DNA of 64,000 bases from a virus, in IMG/VR virus record IMGVR_UViG_3300037200_000067, positions 1 through 64,000 of that record. One strand, written 5' to 3'. The translations under genes and the position numbers were made by a program. Shown one piece after another: positions 411-50,555 of the stretch. Numbering within the stretch: the first letter of the stretch is position 1; the number at the start of each line of letters is the position of its first letter. The notes beneath the pieces were generated by a model, which was not told the DNA's origin, did not search any database, and saw only the letters and a list, made by a program, of their open reading frames with translations.

Positions 411-3400
411 GTGAGCAACATCTATCGCCTTAACGACAGCGGCGAACCGGGCGGACTCCGTGCCCGCGTAAAAATGGTCACGGACAACCTGATCAATTTC
501 ATCAGCGGCCTCGGCACCGGCAAAGACCCAACGACAGCGTCCCGCTTTCATTTCCACGAAATCAACCGCAACGCCCTCGAAGCCGCCTATCGGTCAGACT
601 GGATAGCACGCAGGATCATCGACGCTCCCGCCGAAGATCAGACCCGCGAATGGCGCTCGTGGCAGGCGACAAACCCCCAGATCGAGGCCATCGAAGACCT
701 CGAAAAGCATCTCGATATCCAGCAGAAAACCAAGCTGGCGATCATCCGCGCGCGTCTGTATGGCGGCGCGGCGCTGGTGCTCGGCGTCGATCAAGGCGAA
801 ACGTGGGAGCCGATCGACTATGACAAGGTCGGCAAGGGCGACCTGAAATTCGTGGTGGTGATGAACCGCTACGAACTTGCTGCGGGGCCGCGCATCTATA
901 ACGTGATGAGTCCCTGGTACACGCGTCCGGAATTCTACACGGTCCAGACCCCGCTTTTTGGATTCGGCGGCGAGAACGGCACGCAATATCCCGGCATCAA
1001 CCGAACAGCTGAGGCGTTGATCGTCCCGCCTCGCGTGCAGGGCCAAGCGCCCTATCCGAGCGACAAATTCTTTCAGGTCAGCCCAAACCAGGGAATGGTG
1101 CTGATCCATCCGTCGCGGGTGATCGAACTGGCGGGAAACGAATTGCCCGACTGGCGCCTAGCGCCGATGGGCGGCGGCTGGGGCGATTCGGTCCTCCAGA
1201 CCGTTGACGAGGTGCTGAAAGACTTCGGCCTCACGGTCGGCGGCATCGCCAACATGATCAACGACGCCAAGATGGACGTCGTGAAGGTGCCGGACTTCTC
1301 AAAAAATATATCGACACAGGAATACGCGACGAAACTCGCGACCCGGTTTCAGACCGCGAACCTCCAGAAATCGGTGCTGAACGCCCTCGTTCTCGACAAG
1401 GAGGAAGAGTGGTCGCGCATCCAGACGTCGTTTGCGGCGCTGCCCGATATCATGCGGGAATACATGACGCTCGCGGCGGGCGCCGGCGGGATTCCCGTAA
1501 GCCGGCTGATGGGCCAAAGCCCCGGCCGTGGACTGAATACGACCTCTGGCGGCGACACGGATATCAAGAATTACTACGACTCGATGGCCTCGGCTCAGAA
1601 AACCACGCTCACGCCAGCGATGGAGCCGCTCGACCAGTGCCTGATCCGATCGGCAACCGGGAAATACGATAAAAATATCTGGTACGAATGGAATCCGCTT
1701 TACACGCAAGACCCGAAAGACGTGGCGGCGATCCAACTGACGAAAGCCCAAACCACCTCGCAATACGTCACGATGGGCCTGATCAACGAGGACGCGCTGC
1801 GGCAGGGCGTCGTCAATCAGTTGCTTGAGGATGGCCCTTACGCCGGTCTTGAGGACGCGATCGAGGAATATGGCTCCAAGCCCGACGTCCCCGAGTCGCG
1901 CGTCTGGTCGCCCGGCTATGATCCTGTCACCGGCAAGCCATTGCAGGGCGGCGCGGGCGGCGGCGGTGGGCCGGGCGAGCCAGGATCGCCAGCGGGCGGC
2001 TCTGGCGGCGGTGGAGGATCGAAGGGCGGCGGTGGCGCGGGAGGGCCGACGACGGCCACAGCGCCGGGCGGCAATCGCGGCGCGGGGGGAACGGGCGGCG
2101 AGACGTCGCAGGGAAACCAGGGCGGCAACGTCTTTCACATTCACCTCGCCGGCAAAGACGCGGCTGACTTTGTGCGCGACTTTGATCCAGACCAGCCGCG
2201 TGATCCTGCCGGCAAGTGGACGAGTGGCGGCGGCGCATCTGGGCTCCAGACCAAGAGCGCTAAAAGCGCAGCCTTCTTCGCCGCACTCGAGGAAAAATTC
2301 CGGGCCAGTGCGCAGGCGCGCCTTAACCCGCAGCCGCAGCGCGTCTCGACGTCGCAGGGTGAGGGCGCGCTGGCGATGTTTCACGGGACCGTCGATCAGG
2401 TCCGCGACAAAATTCTGAAGGAGGGTCTCATTCCGCATGCGAGCGGGGGCGGGGACGCTTACGCTGCAAAGCACGGAATGGGCGTCGCGAAGCATGCATT
2501 CGAGGGTGATCGGGCGAATTCCGTCTATATGTCGCCAGACCCCGATTACGCGCGTTCATTCGCGCAGATTGTCGCCAAGGATCATCCGGGCGCCAAGCCG
2601 ATTTTGTTCGAGGCTGACATTCCCGACAGCGCGACCAAAAATCTGAAACGCGACGAGCATGCGGACGGTGCGCCAGCCTATCGTTACATCGGCAAAATAC
2701 CCCCTGCGTGGCTGAAGGTGGTCCCGCTTGACACGCCAGGCTTCGGCAACATCACGACAGACGAGGATAGCGGCGTGAAGCTCTATATCCTCGTGTTCGC
2801 TGACGGGACGACGAGCGCGCTCGACTTCAACCCCAACCACGATCCGAAGACCGGGCAGTTCACGAGCGGTCAGACGGGCGCGGGCGGCGGGCAGAAATCG
2901 GCCAGAACGGCCCGATCTGGTGGCAAGACTTCCCGGAAATCCGGCGCAAAGTCGGCGGGCGCGGGCGCGGCGACAGAGGCCGCGCCAGAACCGACCGAAG
3001 GCGAGGAAGATTTCAATCGCCTGAAGGGCCATCTTCTCGCCGCAGCCGGCGCGATCAAAGACCCGGCCTCGACGATCAAAAACGCCGCGAACTGGACATC
3101 ATGGCATCAGCGCGCTGGATCACAGGCGGCATGGACGCGATCGGGGCTTAAAGCCGCTGCGGCGAGTGGCGCGAAAACGGTCGCCGGCGGCATCCACCAG
3201 GCCGCTGCCGACAAGCTATCCGACACGCTAAAGGGTCTCTTCGACACAATTTGCGAAGGCGTTGGCGGCATCGTCGGAACTGAGGTCGGCGGCATAACGG
3301 GCGGCATTGTCGGCGCGGTCTTCGGCGGAATCATCGGCTATGGCGTCGACAAGCTGATGGACCACCTTGGCGTCACGCCGGAAATGGGCGCGCACGTCCT

Positions 3401-3656
3401 GTCGGTCGCCGGCCACTCGGCGATCGCGTATGCGCACCTTCACGCGCCAAAGATCGCGCAGCGCCTCGCTACGAGCGCGCCAGAGGGCAATTGGAGCGCG
3501 GTGATGCATCCGGGCGCCTATGGCGACGCGGGCGACGGTGGCGACTTCCTCGCGCGCCTTGAGGCGTTCGTCCGCGAACTTGATGCAATGACGCCAGAGC
3601 AGATCACAGAAGCCGCCGCGCAGGCGCGGCAGGCACGCATGGGAGCGCAGATATGA
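411..3656 (+). CDS. Portal protein (DUF1073/HI1409-type) with a long C-terminal extension carrying an ART/Tpt1-like domain and a glycine zipper
   Basis: The N-terminal ~500 aa has DUF1073-type motifs (AYRSDWIARRIIDAPAEDQTREW, ARLYGGAA, GIPVSRLMGQSP.GLN, D..NYYD, WNPL). First gene of the head block. Confidence 0.9.
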   Translation: MSNIYRLNDSGEPGGLRARVKMVTDNLINFISGLGTGKDPTTASRFHFHEINRNALEAAYRSDWIARRIIDAPAEDQTREWRSWQATNPQIEAIEDLEKHLDIQQKTKLAIIRARLYGGAALVLGVDQGETWEPIDYDKVGKGDLKFVVVMNRYELAAGPRIYNVMSPWYTRPEFYTVQTPLFGFGGENGTQYPGINRTAEALIVPPRVQGQAPYPSDKFFQVSPNQGMVLIHPSRVIELAGNELPDWRLAPMGGGWGDSVLQTVDEVLKDFGLTVGGIANMINDAKMDVVKVPDFSKNISTQEYATKLATRFQTANLQKSVLNALVLDKEEEWSRIQTSFAALPDIMREYMTLAAGAGGIPVSRLMGQSPGRGLNTTSGGDTDIKNYYDSMASAQKTTLTPAMEPLDQCLIRSATGKYDKNIWYEWNPLYTQDPKDVAAIQLTKAQTTSQYVTMGLINEDALRQGVVNQLLEDGPYAGLEDAIEEYGSKPDVPESRVWSPGYDPVTGKPLQGGAGGGGGPGEPGSPAGGSGGGGGSKGGGGAGGPTTATAPGGNRGAGGTGGETSQGNQGGNVFHIHLAGKDAADFVRDFDPDQPRDPAGKWTSGGGASGLQTKSAKSAAFFAALEEKFRASAQARLNPQPQRVSTSQGEGALAMFHGTVDQVRDKILKEGLIPHASGGGDAYAAKHGMGVAKHAFEGDRANSVYMSPDPDYARSFAQIVAKDHPGAKPILFEADIPDSATKNLKRDEHADGAPAYRYIGKIPPAWLKVVPLDTPGFGNITTDEDSGVKLYILVFADGTTSALDFNPNHDPKTGQFTSGQTGAGGGQKSARTARSGGKTSRKSGAKSAGAGAATEAAPEPTEGEEDFNRLKGHLLAAAGAIKDPASTIKNAANWTSWHQRAGSQAAWTRSGLKAAAASGAKTVAGGIHQAAADKLSDTLKGLFDTICEGVGGIVGTEVGGITGGIVGAVFGGIIGYGVDKLMDHLGVTPEMGAHVLSVAGHSAIAYAHLHAPKIAQRLATSAPEGNWSAVMHPGAYGDAGDGGDFLARLEAFVRELDAMTPEQITEAAAQARQARMGAQI

Positions 3657-4298: not shown

Positions 4299-4552
4299 CC
4301 GAGGACGGAAGCATGAGAAATTACTTCAAGCCAAGCGCCGTCCTGGCGGTCAAGGTTGAGGCCACGCCTTTAGCAGGCGGCGCGACGATGACAAAGGAAC
4401 GCCCGCAAATGCTCTTGTCCGTCTCAATCGGCGACGTCCTACGCAGACTGGCGGATGACGTCGATAGCCGCGCCAACTGTTCGGTGCGTTGGAATACAGA
4501 CCCCGATGACGGCACGATCACGATGATGGTGGACTTCAAACCGTGGGTCTGA
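4295..4552 (+). CDS. Small hypothetical protein
   Basis: ATGA overlap upstream; TGATG overlap with the MuF start. Confidence 0.55.
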   Translation: MTEDGSMRNYFKPSAVLAVKVEATPLAGGATMTKERPQMLLSVSIGDVLRRLADDVDSRANCSVRWNTDPDDGTITMMVDFKPWV

Positions 4553-6141
4553 TGCTCGACCGCGCGCAAGGAGATCGCCGCAGGCGCATGTTGCGCGACG
4601 CGGCGAAGGGGGAAGGCCGTAGCGGGTTAGCGATAGGTCACGGCCACCTGCATGTCGCTGATCAAACGCCGGGGCGTGGAGGCAACGGGGCCTGCCTCCA
4701 CGACTCTGCCCCGGCCGCGAATGATCCAACAGGCACGACGCCGCTCCGACGGGCATTCCTGGAGGAAGCCCGTAAGCGATGGGCGGCGCTCGATGCGCTC
4801 ACAACTGACGCGATCATCAAGCACAACATGCTCGGAACCGTGAGTGTCGCCAGCATCGGGCAGGCGGCGGCGAGCGCGGTCGGCGGAAACCAGATCGACA
4901 ATTTCGCGCTCTGGTTTGGCGAGGCGGTGCGCCAGGTCGTCATGAACGGCGATGGGCAATGGGTTGCGCCATATATCCGGCAGGCCGCTGGCATGGCCGA
5001 GGAGCGCGCGCGCGGGCTGCTGAGGCTGGACGAAAACGTCGTCGAAGGCATGCCGACGCCTGACGGAAAACCATCCTCGCTCTACATCAGCCGTCCCGTC
5101 GTCAACGCCGCCGATATTGTCGCGTGGGCGAAAGACGCCGGCTTTCCGACCACGCTGCCCGCTGACGATATGCACGTCACGGTCGTCTTCTCGCGCGCGC
5201 AGGTCGATTGGGCGAATGTGCCAGATCACGGCTCTGACCATGTTACGATCGAAGGGTCTGTTGGTCGGTCCCTTGATCAGTTCGGCGACGCCGTCGTCCT
5301 TCGCTTCCCGTGCGAATATCTCGCGCGCCGCCACCATGAAATATCCGCCCTTGGCGCATCATGGGACCATCCGCAATACCAGCCGCACGTCACGATCACG
5401 TGGAACGTCGGCGACTTCGACTGGCGCAACGTGCCCCCATATGCCGGCCCGATTGTGCTCGGCCCGGAAATCTTCAAGCCAGTCAAGGAAGACTGGAAGG
5501 CGTCGATCGTCGAGGACTCCTCGCCCGCGATCAACACTCTGATCGCCGTCACGATCGCCGAACTGCGCGGGATATGCGACGCGACCATCCAGCAGGTGAC
5601 GCGCGCGATCGGCAACGCCGTCCTGGCGCATCAGCGCGCGCCGCAACTCGCCACGGCAGCGGCTGGCGTCATGCGCACAGTCGGTCTCGCCCGCACCAAC
5701 GCCATGATCAATTACATGGTCGTCAAAGCGTTCGCCGTGATCACGCTGGAGGTTTTCCGAACTGGCGGCGTCGAGCAAGTCGGAACGGTCGCCGAAAGCA
5801 TCCCGGCACCGCGCGCGCTCGACGCGCTGTTCGACGCCGCGCGCGTCACGCCGCAGGTGCGCCACGCGCGCACGGGCCAGTTCGTCAAGTTCAAAAAGCC
5901 GCCGTCGCGCAAGAGGCGCGCGGAGATTGAGAAGATCGAGGCTGGGCTCGCGGGGCTTGGCGAGGTCGACGTCGTTACGGCGGACGACGACCTGGTTTGT
6001 CAGCGCTGCCAGGACATCAGCGACAACGGGCCATACGATATAAATGAGGCGCTAGGACTTGTGCCCGTCCATATTTCCTGCCGATGCGTATTTTCACCGA
6101 CTCGCGATGAAGGAGGGCGATTTACCAAAAGGATAAAATGA
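4552..6141 (+). CDS. MuF / SPP1 gp7-family minor head protein with an inserted Acb1-like 2H phosphoesterase domain
   Basis: N-terminal DPTGTTPLRRAF and C-terminal MuF Cys/His motif (TADDDLVCQRC...PVHISCRC). The central domain has two HVT (HxT) motifs at 5173 and 5386. Confidence 0.85.
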   Translation: MLDRAQGDRRRRMLRDAAKGEGRSGLAIGHGHLHVADQTPGRGGNGACLHDSAPAANDPTGTTPLRRAFLEEARKRWAALDALTTDAIIKHNMLGTVSVASIGQAAASAVGGNQIDNFALWFGEAVRQVVMNGDGQWVAPYIRQAAGMAEERARGLLRLDENVVEGMPTPDGKPSSLYISRPVVNAADIVAWAKDAGFPTTLPADDMHVTVVFSRAQVDWANVPDHGSDHVTIEGSVGRSLDQFGDAVVLRFPCEYLARRHHEISALGASWDHPQYQPHVTITWNVGDFDWRNVPPYAGPIVLGPEIFKPVKEDWKASIVEDSSPAINTLIAVTIAELRGICDATIQQVTRAIGNAVLAHQRAPQLATAAAGVMRTVGLARTNAMINYMVVKAFAVITLEVFRTGGVEQVGTVAESIPAPRALDALFDAARVTPQVRHARTGQFVKFKKPPSRKRRAEIEKIEAGLAGLGEVDVVTADDDLVCQRCQDISDNGPYDINEALGLVPVHISCRCVFSPTRDEGGRFTKRIK

Positions 6142-6592: not shown

Positions 6593-8413
6593 ATGGGATT
6601 GCGATACCCGAAAGCGCCCCGCCAGATTGCGGACGGGATCACCCGCGTCAACCTCCTTGATCCCTTCATACTCGACGGCCTCGTTAAGACCAGCGACGGC
6701 ACAATGCGCCGCACGGCGGACGGCTATCTCACCGCCTTCGCCAATGTCGCGCGAACGGGCATCCAGCAGTACAAGGGCAAAGAGCTTGGCCGGCCCGATC
6801 TGGACGTCGTGAACGTCTATCGGCCCGCTGACGAGGTATTCTCGCGCGACGCCATGCATTCGATGGCGCACAAGCCCGTCACGCTCTACCACCCGACCGA
6901 AGCCGTCACCTCGAAGAACTGGAAAGACCACGCGGGCGGATCGACCGGCGATGAGGTTGTCCGCGACGGCGATCATGTCCGCGTCCCGCTGGTCATGATG
7001 GACCAAGGCCTGATCGACGCCGTCGAAAAGGGCGGCATCAAAGAACTGTCGATGGGCTACTCGACGGACCTGAAATGGGGCCGTGGGACGACGCCAGAGG
7101 GCCTGTCCTACGACGCCACGCAGACCAATATCCGCGCCAATCACCTGGCGGTGGTGCCCGTCGCGCGCGGCGGCAACACGCTGCGGCTGGACGCGACGAT
7201 GGCCCAGCCGAATGTCTGCCCGAACTGCGGCGCGGACATTCCGCCGAACGCAGACGAATGCCCGGCCTGCGAATTCGATCTCACCAACGACATGGCGCTT
7301 GACCGCGTGCCCATGAAATATTGCACCGACTGCGGCACGTCGATGATGGCCGATGCAAAGTTCTGTCCCGGCTGCTCGAAGGCGACCAAAGACGGCATGC
7401 CGCCCAAGACCTGCGCTCAATGTGGAGCACAGATGAAATTCTATGCGCTGGCGTGCCCGGTCTGCCAGACGCCCGCGCCGATGCGCGACGCAGCGAACCT
7501 GACCGCGCGCATGGTCGACGCGAATTTTTACTGGATCGTCGACAAGGTGTTCACCGAACAGAAGCGCGCGCAGATGGCGAAGTCCGGCGCCGCGATGCCC
7601 GGAGGGCGCTATCCGATCGCGACCGCTGCGGACGTCGAGAATGCGGTCAGAGACTACAACCGCACCGGCCAGCCGGCCGACGTCAAAGCCCACATCATCG
7701 CCCGCGCGAAAGCGATCGGGGCCACCAGTTCGCTGCCCGATGGATGGGCGTCGAAAACCAACGACAGCAAAGGAAATCCCATGAGCGCGACCATCACGAT
7801 TGACGGCGCCACGATCGCGGTGGCCGACGAACTCTCCGCTGCGGTCATCACCAAGAAGGTGACCGATCTCTCGCGCCAGCTTCGCGACGCCGAGAAGACG
7901 GCAGCCTCGGCCAAGGCCGACAAGGAAGAGGCCGAGGAAGAGAAGATGAAGCAGGAAGACGGCTTCAAGAAGCAGATCGCGGCCAAGGACGGCGAAATCG
8001 TCGCGCTGAAGTCGCAGTTGAAAGACGCCGTGATGAGCCCCGAGAAGCTCGACGCGCTGGTCAAGGACCGCGCCGAGGTTGTCGGCAAGTCCAAGTCGTT
8101 CCTCGGCGACGGCTTCACCTTCGACGGCAAGACTCTCGACGACATCAAGCGCGCGGTGGTCGCCAGCAAGATCGGCGATGCGGAAGCGAAGACGATGGAC
8201 GCTATTGGCGTCGCTGCGGCGTTCAAGGTGCTGACGGCCGGCACGGACACCCGCGACGGCTTTGGCCGCAGCGGCGGCGCCCGCGATATTGGCTTTGCGC
8301 TGCATCACCAGCAGTCGAACGGCCAGCGTCCCGGCGTCCGCGTTCAGGACGCTGCGCTCAGCGATTACGAAAAGAACCTCAACTCGGCATGGCAGACGAA
8401 GCGCGCCTCGTAA
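6593..8413 (+). CDS. Prohead protease/scaffold (DUF2213-type) with inserted zinc ribbons
   Basis: RTADGYL...ARTGIQQY, VYRPADEVF, PVTLYHP, ELSMGYS and NHLAVVPVARGG motifs. C-terminal coiled-coil scaffold region. Confidence 0.88.
   Translation: MGLRYPKAPRQIADGITRVNLLDPFILDGLVKTSDGTMRRTADGYLTAFANVARTGIQQYKGKELGRPDLDVVNVYRPADEVFSRDAMHSMAHKPVTLYHPTEAVTSKNWKDHAGGSTGDEVVRDGDHVRVPLVMMDQGLIDAVEKGGIKELSMGYSTDLKWGRGTTPEGLSYDATQTNIRANHLAVVPVARGGNTLRLDATMAQPNVCPNCGADIPPNADECPACEFDLTNDMALDRVPMKYCTDCGTSMMADAKFCPGCSKATKDGMPPKTCAQCGAQMKFYALACPVCQTPAPMRDAANLTARMVDANFYWIVDKVFTEQKRAQMAKSGAAMPGGRYPIATAADVENAVRDYNRTGQPADVKAHIIARAKAIGATSSLPDGWASKTNDSKGNPMSATITIDGATIAVADELSAAVITKKVTDLSRQLRDAEKTAASAKADKEEAEEEKMKQEDGFKKQIAAKDGEIVALKSQLKDAVMSPEKLDALVKDRAEVVGKSKSFLGDGFTFDGKTLDDIKRAVVASKIGDAEAKTMDAIGVAAAFKVLTAGTDTRDGFGRSGGARDIGFALHHQQSNGQRPGVRVQDAALSDYEKNLNSAWQTKRAS
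7781..8413 (+). CDS. Probable nested scaffolding protein translated from an internal start
   Basis: In-frame ATG at 7781 preceded by AAAGGAAATCCC (strong RBS). Product MSATITIDG... is a charged coiled coil. Confidence 0.6.
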   Translation: MSATITIDGATIAVADELSAAVITKKVTDLSRQLRDAEKTAASAKADKEEAEEEKMKQEDGFKKQIAAKDGEIVALKSQLKDAVMSPEKLDALVKDRAEVVGKSKSFLGDGFTFDGKTLDDIKRAVVASKIGDAEAKTMDAIGVAAAFKVLTAGTDTRDGFGRSGGARDIGFALHHQQSNGQRPGVRVQDAALSDYEKNLNSAWQTKRAS

Positions 8414-11312: not shown

Positions 11313-13049
11313 ATGACGACCGTCGTTCTCACGCCGCAAGACTTTCTCGACCCTGTCGCGCTCGCGAATAAACTCGCGGCTGCGATCAATGAAGGCGACG
11401 GCGCAGGGCTGGAAGGCTTCACCGCAACCTATGTCGCGGAGCCGTATGATGGCGCGACGAATCCAGCCGGCGTCCTTCAAGCGTATGACGGCACGGACGC
11501 GACAGACCCGGTTGACGTCGTGCTCATGCCGGGCGGTCAGCGCGAAGGTGAGCCTGACGGCAACATCACCTACGGCGCGATCCAGGCGACGCTTTCCGAT
11601 GGCACGCCAATTGGCGGCAATCAGCGTGGGACTGGCGCGGTCGATTTTCAGATGTTCCGCACTGATCCGTCGCAAGTCGCGTCGGGCATTTCGGCTTTCG
11701 CAGCGGGATCGGCGAACGTCGCGTCGGGCTGGATTTCGACGGCTTTTGGCGACGCCAATGAGATCACGGGGTTTATCTCTTACGGCGAGGGTTCGGGCAA
11801 CGTCGAGGCAGGGTCGATCAATCACGTCGAAGGGGCCGACAATACCGCTGACGGAACCTACGTCCACGTCGAAGGTGAGGGCAACAACGTCGGTGGCGTG
11901 TCTATGCACGTCGAGGGCTCAGGCAACACGGCAGAAGGCGAGCTTCAGTACGTCCACGTCGAAGGCTACCAGAACACCGTCAACAACAGCTATTCCCATG
12001 CTGAGGGCAGTGGCAACACGATCAACGCTGGGGGCGCGTATTCGCACGTCGAGGGGAATGGCAACTCGACGTCGGGGAACGCAGCGCACGCTGAAGGCTC
12101 TGGAACGCAAGCCAACGGCGCGCAATCGCACGCCGAAGGTTCTGGTACGCTGGCGGAGAGTATTGGCGATCACGCGGAGGGGGTGAACACCGCCGCAAAT
12201 AGCGCGGGAGGCGGCGGTGCGCACGCGGAGGGACTCAGCACGGCGGCAAGTGGACCACAATCCCATGCCGAAGGGAATACGACGCAAGCGCTGAGTAATG
12301 GTGATCACGCCGAGGGTTACAACACGACCGCCAATAGCGGAGGCGACGGAAATTATGGTGCGCATGCCGAAGGCGATTCGACACAAGCGCTAAACGACGG
12401 GGCGCATTCTGAGGGCGGCTACACGGTTGCGTCTGGCTACAATTCCCACGCCGAAGGACAAAGTACGGTTGCCGCAGGAGACTCATCGCGCGCCGAAGGC
12501 ATAAATACGGCGGCATATGGCTACGCGTCAAGGGTTGAGGGCAACTTCGCGACAGATTATGGGGTTTCAGGCGTAAGCGTTCGGGGCGCTTATGGCAGCA
12601 GCATCTTAGGTCACGCGCAGTCTACTATCGCCCTGTTCGTCACCGAGACCGAAGACGCCACTCCGACCGTGATGACGATCGACAACCAAGACCCTTCGAC
12701 GATCAATCAGGTCATTCTCGGCCAAGACAACGCGCTGTACTTCGCTGACGTGTACCTGACGGGCAAAGTCACAGGCGCAAGCGATTGGGTATCAATTTGG
12801 GCGCAGGTCACGGCGCAACGCGGAACAGGGGCCGCGTCCGTCACAATTCCCACCTCAGTCGGAGGCACAAATCCGGCGCTCGCGTTGACCAGCTACGGAA
12901 GCGTCACTGGCTTGACGTGGGGTTCCGGAAGCCCTCTCGCGCTCGTTGCTGACACCGACAACGGCGCGCTTCAGATTCAAATCACAGGCGCAGCCGATAC
13001 AAACATCCAGTGGTATGCCGAAGTCCGCACCCGCGAACAAGTATTCTGA
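11313..13049 (+). CDS. Fibre/adhesin with YadA-head-like beta-roll repeats (probable head fibre)
   Basis: About 17 tandem ~14-aa repeats of (S)H(A/V)EG. AAGGAG RBS. Lies before the head-tail adaptor gene. Confidence 0.75.
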   Translation: MTTVVLTPQDFLDPVALANKLAAAINEGDGAGLEGFTATYVAEPYDGATNPAGVLQAYDGTDATDPVDVVLMPGGQREGEPDGNITYGAIQATLSDGTPIGGNQRGTGAVDFQMFRTDPSQVASGISAFAAGSANVASGWISTAFGDANEITGFISYGEGSGNVEAGSINHVEGADNTADGTYVHVEGEGNNVGGVSMHVEGSGNTAEGELQYVHVEGYQNTVNNSYSHAEGSGNTINAGGAYSHVEGNGNSTSGNAAHAEGSGTQANGAQSHAEGSGTLAESIGDHAEGVNTAANSAGGGGAHAEGLSTAASGPQSHAEGNTTQALSNGDHAEGYNTTANSGGDGNYGAHAEGDSTQALNDGAHSEGGYTVASGYNSHAEGQSTVAAGDSSRAEGINTAAYGYASRVEGNFATDYGVSGVSVRGAYGSSILGHAQSTIALFVTETEDATPTVMTIDNQDPSTINQVILGQDNALYFADVYLTGKVTGASDWVSIWAQVTAQRGTGAASVTIPTSVGGTNPALALTSYGSVTGLTWGSGSPLALVADTDNGALQIQITGAADTNIQWYAEVRTREQVF

Positions 13050-16170: not shown

Positions 16171-16740
16171 ATGCCGACCGTCAGAATGTATCTCGGTGGT
16201 GATCGCATCGGGCCAAAGTTTCAGCGCTCAGTGTTTCGTCAAGGCGAACTGGTCCGCGACGCCGCGCGCGCCGCCGCCGTGGATGCGGCGTTTGAAATCC
16301 AGCAACGCGGCGCGGCCGACATCGCAGGGTCTGGCAAGTTCGGATCACGCTGGACCGAGGGGCTGCACGAGACGGTCACGGAAGGCGGCGGCAATATCCG
16401 CATCGCCGTCACGCACGATATTGCTTTCTGGCCGGTCTTTGAGTTCGGCGCCACGATCAAGGGCAAGCCTCTTCTCTGGATTCCTATGTCGTTTGCCGAT
16501 GATGCGCAAGGCGTCAGCGCGAAAGACTATCCCGGCGTCCTGTTCCGCGTCGATCGGAAGTCGGACGGTCTACCGTTGCTCTTGGCCGCAAGCGGCGTGA
16601 AGGGCGAGCCAGCGCAGGTCAAGTATTTCGCGAAATCGCAGGTGGTGATTCCACGCAAATGGCATCTGCGTGATATCGTTCGCGACGTAGCGCGGCACAT
16701 GGGGCAACTCTACAGGGCGAGGTTTACGAACCGTGGCTGA
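16171..16740 (+). CDS. Tail completion / neck protein (HK97 gp10-like)
   Basis: VFEFGATIKGKPLLWIP motif; basic protein just upstream of the tape measure. Confidence 0.6.
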   Translation: MPTVRMYLGGDRIGPKFQRSVFRQGELVRDAARAAAVDAAFEIQQRGAADIAGSGKFGSRWTEGLHETVTEGGGNIRIAVTHDIAFWPVFEFGATIKGKPLLWIPMSFADDAQGVSAKDYPGVLFRVDRKSDGLPLLLAASGVKGEPAQVKYFAKSQVVIPRKWHLRDIVRDVARHMGQLYRARFTNRG

Positions 16741-19700
16741 CGCAGACAATATCGTCGTCGCGCTCGTCCTCGATGGCGTCGACAAGATCAAGTCTGACCT
16801 TCAGGCGGTCGCATCCGCTGTCAGCACGACTTTCAGCAACGTCCATGAGAGCCTAGCCGGCGTTTCCGAGCAACTTACGGCTGTCTCGACGAATATTCAG
16901 TCGACGGCCCAGACGACTGACGAGGTTTCCAAGCACGTCGAAAGTTCTGGCGATAAAGCCGAGGGCTTCGGCGCGAAGCTGAGCGAGGCCGGCCACAAGG
17001 GCGAGGAGGCGTTCAAAGGCGTCAATGCTGCTGTTCAATCGACGGTCGGCGCACTGAATACCTTGTCTGCGGAAGGGACGCTCAGCGCTCTTGAAGGGCT
17101 CGGCGAAGGCGTCGAAGCGGTCACGAGTCAATTCGGTACGTTCGGGCGCATCCTTGGTCTGACGGCGATCGGAGCCACAACCGTTGGCGTTGCGTTCGGC
17201 GCCGCGACTTACGGGCTTCTGGAATTCGGACGCGCTGGCGGCGAAGCGGCGCAAGAAATCGTCCAACTCGCGCATATGACGGGTTCAAGCGTCGAGCAAA
17301 TCCTCGCGCTTCAGGACACCATGACGAAGGCGGGTATTTCCGCCGGCAACATGGCGCAGATGTTTCGGATCATGTCGATCCGCATTCAGGCGGTGTGGCC
17401 CGACATCGTTCGCGATGCGAGGGACGCGGCTGACAATCTGGCGAAGAACGATCTCGCGATTGCCGCAGCGAGCCAGGGCGTCGTCACGGCGAAGATCAAG
17501 GAAGCCGAATCCGTCGTCAGCGCGGCCGAAGCGTCGCGCAGCGTCCTATCGGCGCAGGACGCTGTCACGGAGGCGACGATCAAGGCGCGTGAAGCGGCGA
17601 TCGATTACGCCGGTTCACAAGACAAATTGGCGCAGGCCGCGATCACGGTGCGGCAGGCGCAATTCGGCGTCATCGACGCCTATCGCGACGTCGAGCACCA
17701 GCAGCAGGACGCCCATTCGGCCGCTACAAGCGTGGCAGAGGCTGAGTACAATCTCTCGCTCGCGCAGGGCGGACGCAAGGACGCGCAACTCGAGAAGACG
17801 TTCAAAATCCAGCATGCCGAGGAGGCGCTCGCGCAGGCGCGCCAGCGCCAGGCTGAGGTGCAAGAGAACGCGCAAAAAAAACAGGCCGCATTCGAGGAAG
17901 CGCAAATCCATCTGCGCGACGCTGAGCGCGCGCGGGACAAGGCGACGCTCGACCAGAAAACCTCACAGCTTCAATATCAGGCCGCCCAACGCGCGCCCGC
18001 GACGGCAGAGGCCAATTATGCGAAGGCGATCCTCGCTGAGGCGACCGCCAATCTCGAGAAGACGGCTGCGATCGATGGCGTCCGCAAGGCGACGATCGAT
18101 CTCACCGACGCGCAGAACAAAGAGCACGACGACTTTGAGCACAGTTCGACGGCCGTCGCCGACCAACTGAACGGCTTCCGCAAAAACATCAACCTCACAC
18201 AGGTCAATTCCGAGACGCTGTTCAAGGCCATGCTCAAAGGCTGGCATGACCAAGCGGGGGCTGCGGCGGATGCGGTGCCGACCGCCATTCAGGGCATCGA
18301 TGCTCTGGCGAAATACTACAAAAAGCTCAGCGCTGAGCAGCGACAGTCTGTCGAGCGCCTAGCGTTTGGGCGCAATGCGACGCCGGAGGAAGACGAGTTT
18401 ATCGCTGAACTGAATAGGCGTGGAGAGTCGCTTGATCAGGCGCTGAAAGACGCGTCACCAGATTTTGCGAAGCAGGCGAGGGACGTCAAGAAAGCCGCTG
18501 ACGCCTACAAAGAACTGAACGCAGCGAGTGGGACGTTCCAATCCGACTTGAATGCCATGCTCCGGCCGATCCAGACCGATTTCATGAAGGGCTTCACGGG
18601 GAGCTTCAAGGAATTCGGCGAGACGCTCAAACTCAATGGTCCAGACATTGAGAAGTTCGGCCACGAGATCGCGGTCAATATTGTTCCCGTTATTCAGAGC
18701 GTGCTCGCACTCCTGACGGGCAACACGCCGAGGATGCCGTTCTTCAAGCACCTGGCGGACGACGTTCAACTCGTCACGGGCCATATCAAGGAGCTTGCCG
18801 AGGTTCTAGCCGCGCTGTTCGCGATCGACCTTGGCGCTGGCCTACTCAAGAAGATCGGGACCATAGGCACTGCGGTATCGGACGCGGCCAAATTGGCCAG
18901 AGAGGCGAATGTCGCTAGGCCCGGAAGTATCCCCGGCCTTCCCGAGGGTCGCATTCCGCCGGTGGTTCCCGTTCCTCCCGTGCCCGCTACAGGCATCGGG
19001 GCGCTTTTGGCGGAGCTTACCGCAGGATTCGTTCGGCTATTGCCGGCCATTTCCCGGTTCGGAATCGCGCTCACGCTTTTGGACCTTGGGATTCGCGGTG
19101 CAGTAACCGCTGACAAAAACACCGGCGCGCTCGCTGAGGAAAACCGCGCGCGCCAGCGCATTGACACTGAGGCGGCAAGCGCGGGCCAAGAACTTGCGGC
19201 CGCGAAGTCTGGATATGACCCGAAAGAGATTGCCAAACGTGAGGCATTGATCGCCGCTCATCCGGAACGGGCTCACGATCAGACCGACCGCGAGAATTTC
19301 CCAGACGTCGTGCGCGCGGAGGAACGCCTCGCGGAAGTCGCGCGCGCGCGGGCTGCGTCGGAAGCGCGCGTCAAAGCGATCAACGATCGCATCACAGGCC
19401 CCGCCCGCGTTGCTGAAGCCGTCGCCAAGCGAGCCGACGAAGAGAAAACGGGCGCTGCGTTGCTCAAAGGCGCGATGACGCCGCGTGAGGAAACGCCTGC
19501 CGAGGCTCCTGGGCCAGACAAAACCTATGGTGCGCTGACGGAAGGACTCGCATCGACACATGGCAGCGCGCCCGGCGCGCCACCGCCTACGGTCGTTCAG
19601 CCAAAGCCGGAAGACGTCACGGCGGGCCATCGCCAGTTCCAGATCATGCGCGGCGGCCAGATCACAACCTATGACGCCGTCACAGGCAAAGAAGTTAGCC

Positions 19701-22246
19701 ACGCAGGGACCGCGTCGACGGCGCCAGAAAGCCCACAGGCCCTTCTCGACGAAGCAAAGCACGCGCCAACGGCGACAGAGATCAGCCGCCAGCACGAAGC
19801 CGCGCCGGCGCCGCCCGGCACGCATCAGGTCCAGATCGTCCGTAACGGCCAACTGGAGACGATCAACGTCGAGGGACCGACGCCTCCCGCGCCAGCCGCG
19901 CGCGCGCCACAGGCCAGCGTCGGCGATCAGGGCGACGTTGGACCCGCTGGTCCGCCCGGCGCGGTGACGCCAGCCAGCGCCCCGCCGCCGCCGTCCCATC
20001 GCGTCATTGAGGTCAACCGTGGCGGCAAGATTGTCGCGGTAGACGCCGATACGGGCGCGCCAGTCAGCGCCGCCCCCGCACAATCCATCATCCCGGCAGC
20101 AATCACCGCGCCAGCATCCGTCTCCCCACCAGGACGACCCGAACAACTGGAAAAATCGGCGACGGCTCAACGCCAGGCGACGGCCTCATCCGAAGCCTCT
20201 GTGTCGTCGTCGTCAGCGGTCGAGCGCAGCACCGATCGCATCGCGACGAACACCGATCGCGTCGTCACGGCGGTTGAGCGCGCCACGGTCGAGAAGATCG
20301 CGCCGGCGCCCGGAACCGCGCCCCTCGGCAGCAGGCTGGAAACCGGCCAAGGCGCTGCGCCTGCCGGGCTGATCGAAGGGCGCATATCCGCCGCCGAGGC
20401 TTCGCTCCCCGCGCCGAAGGCAGCGGACGCGCTCGCGCAGATCGCGACCATCGCCGCCGAGCGGCAACCCGCCGCGCCGATCGTCCAGCCGAGCGCGGCC
20501 GTTGCGTCGCCCGCCGCAGCATCGGCCCGCATCGAACATATCGTCGTCGCGGCTGATCGGCTTGGCATCGCGTCGACTTCACTGACGACGGCATCCACGG
20601 CGATCACGAGCGCGGAGACGAAGGAAAGCGACGCGGCGACGGGCCTCAAGTCCACGGTCGGTAATTTCGCCGCCTCCATCAGTGCATTCAGCACCGCGGT
20701 CGTCGCGCTGCGAACTGCGGCCGACAAGCTCGCTGGCGGAAAGAAGGGCGACGAAGGCGCTCCCAAGGACGACGGGACGGCGGCGGCGTCCGGCGGCGGC
20801 GGGAGCGGAGGATCAGGTGGCGCGGGCGGCGGTGGCGCCGCTCCTAGCGGCGGTGGCGAAGGCGTCGACACGGGCGTTCCAGTTTCCAATGTCGTCCCTG
20901 CCGTCGCGAGGCCGACGACCGCGCCTCCGTCAGTTGCGACGCCCACGGCGGCGCCGGCTACTGCCGCCGCGCAGGACGGCGGGGCGCTCCAGCCGCGCGT
21001 GACGCTTGAGGGCCGCGCGGCGCCCACGAGCGCATCAGGCGCGCCAGCGGCGAGCGGCGGGACGCCCGCTACTGTGAGCCAGCCGGGAGCATCTGCGGCT
21101 CAAACGGGAGCCTTTGCGCCTTCACTTGGAGCTTCTGGCGGCGAAAGTGGGGCTGGCGGCGAGGCGAGCGCGATCGCGGTCGGCGGAGCAGGGCTCGGCG
21201 GCGTCTCCACAATGGCGACGCCGGGGTCCGGGGTTCTGCCACCGGCTGGTGCGCCTATTCCAGATTTCCTGAAGCAACTCTCACCAGAGGACTATGAGCG
21301 CGATCCGACAGGCCGCACCGTGCCAAGCTATCCGTTCCGAGAGGGTCAAACGCCCTATCAGATCAACACCGTGCTTGGGGGCGCGCCAATGTCGTATCTT
21401 GGCGAAAATATGGACGCGGCGATCGACAAGGGCGAAGCGATCGCGGAAAAGAAATTGCAGCAGGAATACAAGCGCGACCCGTTCAAGTTTCAACAGGACT
21501 CCGAAAAGCCGCCAAAGCCTAATCCCATCTTCCCGTCGCCTTTCGCGGATCAGACCTACGCCCAACGCGTCAAGGGGACGATGCACGACGAAGACGGAAA
21601 CCAGATTGCGGTCGACAGGGAGCTTCCGCCCGACTATTCGATCAACACGCAACCCGGCGCGCAGCCGGTCGGCTTCACGCCAAGCGAAGGTTACGGCTAC
21701 GCCGGCAACAGCGGCGACACTGTCGACCCTGGCTTTGCGACTGGCGGCCACATTCAGGGTCCGGGTTCGACGACGTCCGACAGCATCCCGATCATGGCGT
21801 CGCACAATGAATTCGTCATGCAGTCGAAGGCGACCGAACATTGGGGCGTCGACTTCATGCACGCGATCAACGAAGGCCGCATTCCGGCGATGTTCAATGG
21901 CGGCATTCTCGGTGATCGCGATGCTGGCGCGGCGGCGCTTCCGTTCAGCAGCATGTTCGCACCACCGCGCGAGGAAGGCGCGTCCTTCAAGGGGTTCGCT
22001 ATGGGCGGCGTGATCGACGGCTTCGCGGCGGCGTTCTCGCATCCTCTCATTCCCGATGCGCCAAAATTCGCGGGCGGCGGATCGGTCCCGAGCGGTTCGT
22101 CCATGCGGCCCTTGACGCTGGTCATTGGCGATCAGAAATTCGGTGGCCTGATGGCGCCCGAAAAAACGGCTGGAGACATGACCAAATTCGCGATCAACCA
22201 GCAATTGACCTCGACCAGCCGCAACTCGCCAAGTTGGAGGCGCTGA
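16733..22246 (+). CDS. Tape measure protein with a long Pro/Ala/Gly-rich insert
   Basis: 1837 aa with an Ala-rich helical N-terminal half. C-terminal FATGGHIQGPGSTTSDSIPIMASHNEFVM motif typical of siphovirus tape measures. Confidence 0.88.
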   Translation: MADADNIVVALVLDGVDKIKSDLQAVASAVSTTFSNVHESLAGVSEQLTAVSTNIQSTAQTTDEVSKHVESSGDKAEGFGAKLSEAGHKGEEAFKGVNAAVQSTVGALNTLSAEGTLSALEGLGEGVEAVTSQFGTFGRILGLTAIGATTVGVAFGAATYGLLEFGRAGGEAAQEIVQLAHMTGSSVEQILALQDTMTKAGISAGNMAQMFRIMSIRIQAVWPDIVRDARDAADNLAKNDLAIAAASQGVVTAKIKEAESVVSAAEASRSVLSAQDAVTEATIKAREAAIDYAGSQDKLAQAAITVRQAQFGVIDAYRDVEHQQQDAHSAATSVAEAEYNLSLAQGGRKDAQLEKTFKIQHAEEALAQARQRQAEVQENAQKKQAAFEEAQIHLRDAERARDKATLDQKTSQLQYQAAQRAPATAEANYAKAILAEATANLEKTAAIDGVRKATIDLTDAQNKEHDDFEHSSTAVADQLNGFRKNINLTQVNSETLFKAMLKGWHDQAGAAADAVPTAIQGIDALAKYYKKLSAEQRQSVERLAFGRNATPEEDEFIAELNRRGESLDQALKDASPDFAKQARDVKKAADAYKELNAASGTFQSDLNAMLRPIQTDFMKGFTGSFKEFGETLKLNGPDIEKFGHEIAVNIVPVIQSVLALLTGNTPRMPFFKHLADDVQLVTGHIKELAEVLAALFAIDLGAGLLKKIGTIGTAVSDAAKLAREANVARPGSIPGLPEGRIPPVVPVPPVPATGIGALLAELTAGFVRLLPAISRFGIALTLLDLGIRGAVTADKNTGALAEENRARQRIDTEAASAGQELAAAKSGYDPKEIAKREALIAAHPERAHDQTDRENFPDVVRAEERLAEVARARAASEARVKAINDRITGPARVAEAVAKRADEEKTGAALLKGAMTPREETPAEAPGPDKTYGALTEGLASTHGSAPGAPPPTVVQPKPEDVTAGHRQFQIMRGGQITTYDAVTGKEVSHAGTASTAPESPQALLDEAKHAPTATEISRQHEAAPAPPGTHQVQIVRNGQLETINVEGPTPPAPAARAPQASVGDQGDVGPAGPPGAVTPASAPPPPSHRVIEVNRGGKIVAVDADTGAPVSAAPAQSIIPAAITAPASVSPPGRPEQLEKSATAQRQATASSEASVSSSSAVERSTDRIATNTDRVVTAVERATVEKIAPAPGTAPLGSRLETGQGAAPAGLIEGRISAAEASLPAPKAADALAQIATIAAERQPAAPIVQPSAAVASPAAASARIEHIVVAADRLGIASTSLTTASTAITSAETKESDAATGLKSTVGNFAASISAFSTAVVALRTAADKLAGGKKGDEGAPKDDGTAAASGGGGSGGSGGAGGGGAAPSGGGEGVDTGVPVSNVVPAVARPTTAPPSVATPTAAPATAAAQDGGALQPRVTLEGRAAPTSASGAPAASGGTPATVSQPGASAAQTGAFAPSLGASGGESGAGGEASAIAVGGAGLGGVSTMATPGSGVLPPAGAPIPDFLKQLSPEDYERDPTGRTVPSYPFREGQTPYQINTVLGGAPMSYLGENMDAAIDKGEAIAEKKLQQEYKRDPFKFQQDSEKPPKPNPIFPSPFADQTYAQRVKGTMHDEDGNQIAVDRELPPDYSINTQPGAQPVGFTPSEGYGYAGNSGDTVDPGFATGGHIQGPGSTTSDSIPIMASHNEFVMQSKATEHWGVDFMHAINEGRIPAMFNGGILGDRDAGAAALPFSSMFAPPREEGASFKGFAMGGVIDGFAAAFSHPLIPDAPKFAGGGSVPSGSSMRPLTLVIGDQKFGGLMAPEKTAGDMTKFAINQQLTSTSRNSPSWRR

Positions 22247-49680: not shown

Positions 49681-50555
49681 TTGCCTCCTTGCGCGCGCTT
49701 CATCTTCTGATTGAGAAGCGCAATCGCCCGATCGTACGACTCCTTCGGGAGCGCGGAAATCTGCGGGATTTCAAACGCCGCACAGAACGCCGCGCGATCG
49801 GATTTGGTCGCTTCCAGAAGATCGGCAAGCGTCTGCAACTGAGCCGCATCAATGAGATATTCCTCGATTGAGCCAGCCTCCGATCCAGCCGCCCTTCCGT
49901 CATCGTCGCCATCGGTCGGCGCGCGCGACGTAATGTTCAGCAAGAGCGACGCGGTGTACCGTTTGCCATAAGTGATCGACGAGCCCATGGCTTGGACCGG
50001 GTTCTTTGAGCCTGTACTATCGTGCATCAGAACCATTGTCGTCTGTTCCTCGTGGCCTTCACGATGCCCAAGGATGCCCGTGACGGTGATCCGGCCATCG
50101 GGCGCAATGCCAGTCTTGAACGACAGCGCGAACCCGAATTTGGCGAGCGGCCCTTTGATGGCCTCGTTGATATCGGCCAACGACGAATAGGGCGTCTCTT
50201 GAATCGGTTTGGCGTTCGGATTCGGCGGCTGCCTCTCCCGATCGGCCTTGGAATAGACGATAATCCTGCCCGTCTGCGCGACGCCCGGAAGCTCGGGCTG
50301 CATAGCGCTGAAATCAGCGAAGAACGCGGCCTTGGCGCGCCTGGCTTGAACCCTGTCGTGCAGGTCCATCAGCTTTTCGAGCCGCGCGAGATCAACGCTC
50401 GGATCGACTAGCACGCGCTCGATCATCGCGGTGAAGTGGTCCTGCGCGACGGGCGCGGCATGGCGTCCGTGCTGGGCGTGGACGACGCTTCCGCCGTCGT
50501 GAACGCCTTCGCCGACGACGATCGTCTCGACCGCCGCGTCCGTCGTTTCCGCCAT
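49677..50555 (-). CDS. erf: ERF-family ssDNA annealing protein
   Basis: YSSL.DI...I...L...G.AL.F, L.H..GH.E, QA.GS.ITYG.RY and D.DDDG motifs. Confidence 0.85.
   Translation of the reverse strand: MAETTDAAVETIVVGEGVHDGGSVVHAQHGRHAAPVAQDHFTAMIERVLVDPSVDLARLEKLMDLHDRVQARRAKAAFFADFSAMQPELPGVAQTGRIIVYSKADRERQPPNPNAKPIQETPYSSLADINEAIKGPLAKFGFALSFKTGIAPDGRITVTGILGHREGHEEQTTMVLMHDSTGSKNPVQAMGSSITYGKRYTASLLLNITSRAPTDGDDDGRAAGSEAGSIEEYLIDAAQLQTLADLLEATKSDRAAFCAAFEIPQISALPKESYDRAIALLNQKMKRAQGGK

Follow-up and report, generated by a model that had tools for sequence, protein, structure and literature searches.

A predicted ADP-ribosyltransferase-fold domain related to the NAD+ lobe of Tpt1/KptA follows the portal core in a head protein of an uncultivated phage

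In a 64,000-nucleotide stretch of viral DNA (positions 1 to 64,000 of IMG/VR record IMGVR_UViG_3300037200_000067, referred to here as the window), which comes from a complete genome of 74,259 bp with direct terminal repeats, one unbroken open reading frame (ORF) of 1,081 codons at 411 to 3656 on the plus strand encodes a 1,081-residue protein, consisting of a phage portal and a C-terminal extension of about 630 residues. Structure prediction and profile comparison support placing a domain of this extension in the ADP-ribosyltransferase (ART) superfamily, as a homolog of the Tpt1/KptA lobe that binds NAD+ (nicotinamide adenine dinucleotide). The domain represents a large family that has no curated model in Pfam, PHROG, or NCBIfam and serves as a building block of multidomain proteins associated with the phage head, which may be polyvalent, MuF fused, or portal fused. 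With slightly better than an even chance of being right, we read it as a portal-borne, NAD+-binding ART that would be carried in the head, injected, and used to ADP-ribosylate a host target early in infection.

Portal core, linker, and domain occur in the following order within the ORF:

576 to 1757, plus strand: portal core, residues 56 to 449, matching Pfam PF06381 (Phage_portal_3) with E = 1.6e-87
1947 to 2126, plus strand: glycine-rich low-complexity linker, residues 513 to 572, read from the translation, upstream of the ART domain
2364 to 2744, plus strand: ART-fold domain, residues ~652 to 778, predicted homolog of the Tpt1/KptA NAD+ lobe

The PF06381 score of the 1,081-residue protein, 293.9 bits, passes the curated threshold of 33.8 bits, and the portal part also matches phrog_146 in PHROG (E = 8e-108, residues 21 to 495) and TIGR01555 in NCBIfam (E = 9e-72). 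An earlier note on this DNA had described a Tpt1-like ART domain fused to the portal protein behind a glycine-rich linker, and quoted a translation from 2376 to 2723 on the plus strand, MFHGT...KILKEGLIP...SVYMSPDPDYARSFA...PILFEADIP...RDE...YRYIGKIPPAWL. That string is found exactly, and in frame, in the translation of the ORF; the linker precedes the domain as described; and the portal match and the domain share one chain, both here and in the database proteins P0004, P0153, and P0039. The location given for the domain was also right, with a span that falls slightly short of the folded residues. About 70 residues upstream of the domain are of low complexity, and residues 573 to 651 consist of linker and a single helix. 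The glycine-rich linker differs in length and sequence between the window ORF and P0004. An internal start at M656, with a GAGGG 11 nucleotides upstream, was rejected because this methionine is conserved neither in P0004 nor in the family.

AlphaFold2, run on an alignment of the window domain with 38 standalone family members (alignment A1), produced a model with six strands and the expected helices, ordered over ORF residues ~652 to 778, with a mean predicted local distance difference test (pLDDT) score of 85.5 and a predicted template modeling (pTM) score of 0.77. When this model was compared with the PDB using Foldseek, only ARTs were returned: the first 15 matches were Tpt1/KptA entries (E = 1e-4 to 1e-3, probability 1.0), and after them came DarT, pertussis and cholera toxins, TreX, Arr, Scabin, and PARP13. 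The same order emerged when 48,161 representative chains were scanned independently of Foldseek, with essentially all of the top ~45 being ARTs. Neighbors in a viral structure library were uncharacterized phage proteins, a phage 'RNA 2'-phosphotransferase', and PARP-like and DarT-like proteins.

Profile methods led to the same relative. The A1 profile matched Tpt1 structures in the PDB (E = 5.9e-5) via the segment Y-H-G-T...S-I..e-G-L-x-P, with a weak second segment at I-P-P..I, and hhalign aligned it to Escherichia coli KptA (from NC_000913.3) over the NAD+ lobe with 93.8% probability and E = 1.8e-7. Both kinds of alignment are confined to that lobe, covering chain residues ~91 to 180 in the structural comparison and KptA residues 97 to 180 in the profile comparison. 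Weak Pfam matches among 39 family members were to PARP (15 of 39), PTS_2-RNA (11 of 39), DUF7002 (9 of 39), and ART-PolyVal (2 of 39). The nearest clusters in a protein language-model atlas, useful as leads only, were viral hypotheticals and PARP-, Tox-ART-HYD1-, and Arr-type proteins. The sole match of a single-sequence phmmer search against the PDB, a MarR protein at E = 1.2, was judged spurious. The ART fold that the earlier note had read from motifs was thus upheld by structure prediction, in which the best structural neighbors were all ARTs with the Tpt1/KptA NAD+ lobe first, and the profile alignments to Tpt1 run through the very motifs it had named (HGT, I..EGL, VY.S, and IPP.W).

Kinship to Tpt1/KptA extends to the fold and stops short of family membership. 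The window domain has no match to the Tpt1/KptA model PF01885 (PTS_2-RNA) at E ≤ 1, and the best match of any family member to this model (E = 0.0047) falls under the 26-bit cut-off. Because the PF01885 match, the RNA lobe, and the second His (replaced by Tyr or Phe) are all lacking, the domain is not a true Tpt1. Its family is the closest known relative of the Tpt1 NAD+ lobe that is without an RNA lobe.

Conservation was measured in a hidden Markov model (HMM) alignment of 174 domain copies, and the following elements of the domain stand out:

2382 to 2390, plus strand: H658-G659-T660 on strand 1, conserved at 99, 98, and 97%, aligning to TkoTpt1 His98-Gly99-Thr100
2436 to 2510, plus strand: family-specific helical insertion of ~23 to 25 residues between helix 1 and strand 2
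2511 to 2534, plus strand: R701 and strand 2, S704-V705-Y706-M-S (R 80%, S 85%, V 91%)
2652 to 2657, plus strand: acidic pair D748-E749 at the end of strand 4 and start of the strand 4-5 loop, as assigned by DSSP on the model (D 96%, E 78%)
2676 to 2714, plus strand: strands 5 and 6, A-Y-R-Y-I-G-K-I-P-P-A-W-L (R758 83%, I763 87%, P765 85%, W767 85%)

Other conserved positions are I668 (94%), G672 (99%), A714 (97%), and P738 (98%). In TkoTpt1, His98 and Thr100 contact the adenosine ribose of NAD+ and the Gly99 backbone contacts nicotinamide (PMC12678800), while Ser107 and Ile108 contact adenine, Arg118 the pyrophosphate, and His122 the nicotinamide ribose (PMC12678800; compare PMC6333775). In the alignments, these contact residues pair with H658, T660, G659, [S/K]667-I668, approximately R701, and Y706, and because of this pairing the NAD-binding apparatus is predicted to be retained, with H658-G659-T660 expected to contact the adenosine ribose and nicotinamide. 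Position 706, which aligns with the His of the Tpt1 motif V-H-L-S, is Tyr in 60% of copies and Phe in 37% (aromatic in 97%). R701 follows the 23-residue insertion and lies four residues before V705, versus three in KptA, and would occupy roughly the position of the Tpt1 tetrad residue Arg118, offset by one residue. The insertion itself is a gap opposite KptA in hhalign and forms helices at 681 to 703 in the model; G680 (87%), D682 (82%), and position 684 (Y/W684, with W in 68%) are its conserved residues. The segment of strands 5 and 6 aligns weakly to TkoTpt1 V-R-I-V-E-R-V-P-P-D-C-I.

A key difficulty lies in the third catalytic position. By homology to Tpt1 the classical position on strand 5 is Y757, which is hydrophobic or aromatic across the family, and D748-E749 lies one hairpin loop earlier. 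The acidic pair may have a catalytic role. Two assignments are possible. On one, the family is related to the H-H-h clade as an H-[Y/F]-h type with an added acidic pair; on the other, it has an H-Y-[D/E] active site comparable to those of Arr (H-Y-D) and AcrIF11 (H-H-D). The H-Y-E label proposed earlier is uncertain: the His (H658) and the aromatic second residue (Y/F706) are present, with Y757 at the third position and D748-E749 before it.

An exhaustive phmmer/HMMER scan of 1.84 billion representative proteins recovered 273 relatives of the domain at E ≤ 1e-3, of which 85 reached E ≤ 1e-10; counted at 50% identity, the family comprises at least 273 clusters. About one-quarter are standalone proteins of ~123 to 160 residues; the remainder are multidomain, reaching 4,059 residues, and chains with two to four domain copies made up 22 of 149 proteins. 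Pfam domains co-occurring in 72 multidomain homologs were Phage_Mu_F (12), ART-PolyVal (5), Topoisom_I (5), DUF7178 (4), Acb1 (3), Phage_portal_3 (2), and Zeta_toxin (2). The company that the domain keeps is therefore that of polyvalent and head cargo proteins: it is fused to a portal here, and elsewhere in the family it is joined to MuF, ART-PolyVal, Acb1, topoisomerase IB, zeta toxin, and Nudix domains. DUF7178 (PF23802) occurs repeatedly downstream of the ART domain (P0003, P0006, and P0154), the Nudix domain lies at the N terminus of P0154, and the topoisomerase IB found in five family proteins is of the eukaryotic type.

In public annotation, members of the family are named 'hypothetical protein', with the exceptions of two called 'RNA:NAD 2'-phosphotransferase (TPT1/KptA family)' in IMG and one called SPP1 gp7/MuF. 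When the window domain was searched directly in Pfam, PHROGs, NCBIfam, and PADLOC, no model matched; tblastn of the domain against 50,697 phage records gave no match; and a single-domain search for related loci in genome contigs and viral contigs gave no confirmed relatives. The ART-PolyVal model PF18760 also has no match to the window domain, and 2 of 39 members match it weakly (E ≥ 0.0056). Because PF18760 misses the domain in this way yet has strong matches in 5 of the 72 family proteins, the domain family is taken as distinct from ART-PolyVal on the strength of these profile comparisons.

The same fusion is found in other phages. P0004 and P0153, which are near-identical to each other, are colinear with the window ORF over ~1,080 residues at 50% identity, including the boundary motifs and glycine-zipper tail listed below, and P0039 joins a more distant portal (39% identity) to an ART domain (36%) at the same position. 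The portal-ART fusion is thus maintained across diverged phages and independent assemblies. The elements shared with P0004 outside the domain are as follows:

2178 to 2219, plus strand: upstream boundary motif D-F-D-P-D-Q-P-R-D-P-x-G-K-W, residues 590 to 603, conserved in P0004
2829 to 2861, plus strand: downstream boundary motif N-P-N-H-D-P-K-T-G-Q-F, residues 807 to 817, conserved in P0004
3258 to 3356, plus strand: glycine-zipper, membrane-like segment, residues ~950 to 980, in the far C-terminal module, conserved in P0004

Motifs of the class [RHK][DEGN]xxG[KRQ][WF] are ~43-fold enriched in family proteins versus shuffled sequence and lie within 90 residues of about one-third of domain copies, a pattern that marks the class as an apparent general inter-domain feature. 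The regions bracketing the ART domain, 2127 to 2228 and 2775 to 2870 on the plus strand, resemble two copies of one ~30-residue element, in which a hydrophobic strand (V-F-H-I-H-L or L-Y-I-L-V-F) precedes D-F-[DN]-P-[DN]...[RH]-D-P-x-x-G-[KQ]-[WF]-T-S-G. This element is a candidate cleavage site, packaging tag, or ejection tag. Past the domain, 2871 to 3656 on the plus strand encodes a Lys/Ser/Ala-rich linker, a helical region, the glycine-zipper segment, and a ~100-residue tail, all conserved in P0004; the glycine-zipper module has a weak Pfam match to Gly-zipper_Omp (E = 0.034, below the cut-off) and weak PHROG tape-measure matches.

Downstream of the portal gene, the head module continues with genes for a MuF-like protein, a protease, a cement protein, and the major capsid protein. 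Three features of this module are as follows:

4543 to 6141, plus strand: MuF-like minor-head protein of 532 residues, matching phrog_755 and, weakly, phrog_758 (head morphogenesis)
5077 to 5502, plus strand: Acb1-type 2H phosphodiesterase within the MuF-like protein, residues 179 to 320, matching Pfam PF23474 with E = 2.7e-42
6593 to 8413, plus strand: head maturation protease (DUF2213), Pfam DUF2213 E = 7.6e-49 and phrog_530 E = 1.5e-84

The Acb1 domain is of the 2H phosphodiesterase type directed against CBASS (cyclic oligonucleotide-based antiphage signaling systems), and the DUF2213 protein is a candidate processing enzyme. At the C terminus of the phrog_146 portal profile is an Acb1-like 2H domain, in the same position as the ART domain here, so related phages fuse 2H to the portal, and the slot after the portal core can be seen as a recurrent site for enzymatic cargo. 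The MuF-like protein terminates in a Cys-rich segment and the motif T-R-D-E-G-G-R-F, and the protease domain is followed by double zinc-ribbon domains (Pfam DZR). Further along the window, the structural region includes a 1,837-residue ORF (16733 to 22246, plus strand) and a 578-residue ORF (11313 to 13049, plus strand), both with no Pfam match at E ≤ 0.01, the latter matching only phrog_25468, a PHROG of unknown function, and a single tRNA-Gly (anticodon TCC) lies at 50454 to 50541 on the plus strand.

For ARTs that are part of MuF, portal, or polyvalent proteins, a role as head-packaged early effectors has been predicted (Iyer 2017, PMC5512222; Iyer 2022, PMC9503650). A sequence of events consistent with this prediction can be proposed for the domain described here. 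Portals are dodecamers, and because the extension is part of the portal chain, with the domain following the portal core, up to 12 copies could be present per head. Cleavage by the head protease, made possible by the flexible linkers and conserved boundary motifs, would free the domain, which could then leave the head with the DNA, as T4 Alt does. Once in the host, it would ADP-ribosylate a host target with NAD+ drawn from the cell at the outset of infection, acting alongside the virion-borne Acb1 domain of the neighboring head protein. Candidate acceptors of the ADP-ribose are proteins, nucleic acids, phosphates, and small molecules.

Several points weigh against this sequence of events. NAD binding and turnover are predicted from sequence, and the retention of the extension in virions, its cleavage, and its ejection are steps that we infer. 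Twelve tethered chains cannot exit via the portal channel unless they are cut. At the residue level, the third catalytic position by Tpt1 homology is the hydrophobic Y757 and has no acid; D748-E749, which opens the preceding loop, may serve a structural purpose such as pairing with R758; and position 706 is Phe in more than a third of copies (37%). Searches of the phage genome for Macro, NADAR, and Nudix partner or eraser genes found none, which gives no help in choosing an acceptor, and the phage itself is an uncultivated metagenomic genome.

One alternative keeps closer to Tpt1/KptA chemistry, in which ADP-ribose is transferred to a phosphate, whether to remove an RNA 2'-phosphate, to cap 5'-phosphate ends of RNA or DNA, or to modify a phosphorylated small molecule. 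Tpt1 is the closest relative of the domain in both sequence and structure, two family members already carry the TPT1/KptA name in IMG, R701 (80% conserved) lies near the position of tetrad Arg118, and a 2H phosphoesterase is encoded by the next head gene. By homology the third position is hydrophobic, a trait of the H-H-h clade, whose substrates are said to be phosphates and small molecules (PMC9503650). However, the N-terminal RNA lobe that supplies three of the four essential Tpt1 residues, Arg-His-Arg, is absent (PMC6333775), Tyr or Phe replaces the second His, and PTS_2-RNA, as noted above, fails to match the window domain. The neighboring 2H domain matches Acb1 strongly (E = 2.7e-42), pointing to degradation of cyclic nucleotide signals and not to processing of ADP-ribose cyclic phosphate (Appr>p), and no RNA ligase or RtcB was found when sought in the phage genome. 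Taken together, these observations make chemistry of the Tpt1/KptA kind unlikely. Repair of RNA in the sense of Tpt1 is disfavored in particular, because the RNA lobe is missing, the neighboring 2H is of the Acb1 type, and the genome lacks RNA ligase and RtcB.

A related and similarly doubtful possibility is that the domain, instead of modifying proteins as toxins do, is a lobe-less Tpt1-type enzyme (H-[Y/F]-hydrophobic), in which the family-specific insertion replaces the RNA lobe and ADP-ribose is placed on a phosphate or small molecule. At the portal, for example, such an enzyme could cap the end phosphates of the phage's own linear DNA, which has terminal repeats, protecting them against host exonucleases. 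Alternatively, it could neutralize immune signals derived from nucleotides or ADP-ribose, and together with Acb1 would make up an anti-signaling kit, carried ready in the virion, that takes effect before any phage gene is expressed.

A role in anti-defense could also be filled by an NADase or NAD phosphorylase, or by a protein that modifies or sequesters ADP-ribose-derived immune signals, complementing the virion-borne Acb1. The context is suggestive: the adjacent head protein contains a strong Acb1 domain, Acb1 is in the same chain in 3 of 72 family proteins, and one family protein (P0154) has a Nudix domain. NAD-binding residues are conserved while the canonical strand 5 Glu is missing, and some ART clades are NADases or produce soluble ADP-ribose derivatives (PMC9503650). 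This explanation is improbable, as it draws on context only, with no matches to signal-binding or NADase families; twelve copies would be too few for a stoichiometric sponge, and NAD depletion is normally harmful to the phage.

ART folds without activity occur in other systems, and a catalytically dead module retained in the head for structural, packaging, or protein-binding purposes would account for the lack of a canonical catalytic Glu on strand 5 and for Phe at position 706 in 37% of copies. Against this, H-G-T, R701, D748, and R758 are 80 to 99% conserved in 174 copies drawn from very different architectures and from standalone proteins, which is the pattern expected of an active ligand-binding site, and we regard a dead module as quite improbable. 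That the motifs match by chance, or that the assembly or reading frame is in error, is a reading for which only the lack of a direct Pfam, PHROG, or NCBIfam match could be cited; it is already refuted by 273 homologs, a confident fold, and the same fusion in independent assemblies, and its probability is negligible.

Enzymes loaded into the virion act before phage genes are expressed, giving the phage the first move against host immunity or toward host takeover. To our knowledge, T4 Alt is the only well-studied ART packaged in a phage head. Computational work has already described fusions of head-packaged phage ARTs to portal and MuF proteins; what is new is the family itself, large, lacking a curated model, and the nearest lobe-less relative of the Tpt1 NAD+ lobe. 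Identifying the acceptor would tell injected chemistry derived from Tpt1, directed at phosphates or small molecules, from another protein-modifying ART, and a curated family model would improve annotation of phage head cargo.

Among known systems, Tpt1/KptA (PDB 9ld3/9ldi, 8tg4, 8tfi, and 6e3a; PF01885) is the closest in fold, sharing the NAD+ lobe with its H-G-T motif. Unlike Tpt1/KptA, the domain lacks the winged-helix RNA lobe and with it the Arg-His-Arg of the tetrad; it carries Tyr or Phe for the strand 2 His, and so is not H-H-h; it adds the ~23-residue helical insertion, the near-invariant Asp-Glu, and a longer strand 4-5 loop; and it resides in head proteins of phages, where a single chain often has several copies. 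The ART-PolyVal or N4-like ARTs (PF18760, Tox-ART-HYD2 clade) of phage and plasmid polyvalent proteins occupy the same niche (PMC5512222), as modules with an H-Y-acid-type configuration that occur in one or many copies in phage MuF- or portal-associated proteins and are predicted to be packaged and injected. They differ in that PF18760 does not match the domain, with strong matches in 5 of 72 family proteins.

T4 Alt, an ART that is carried in the head and enters the host together with the DNA, offers a functional precedent (PMC5512222), although Alt belongs to the R-S-E clade (Alt/VIP2), is a separate protein, and has no kinship to the domain family at the sequence level. The rifampin ADP-ribosyltransferase Arr (PDB 2hw2 and 9iaf), with an H-Y-D configuration (PMC8120803), has no sequence-profile match to the domain, modifies a small-molecule antibiotic, and lacks the insertion and motifs specific to the family. 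AcrIF11, a phage anti-CRISPR ART (H-H-D) that ADP-ribosylates Cas8f (PMC8120803), is similar in being a small, divergent phage ART directed against host immunity, and provides a precedent for an anti-defense role; it differs in being made after infection and is not known to be virion borne, and it is absent among the structural matches listed. The MuF- and portal-2H fusions noted by Iyer et al. (PMC5512222 and PMC9503650) are a parallel in architecture. The enzyme in the portal-2H (Acb1-like) fusions of PHROG 146 is a different one, a 2H phosphodiesterase, which in the phage described here sits in the MuF-like protein, but the cargo slot after the portal core is the same, and in both cases it is filled by an enzyme domain.

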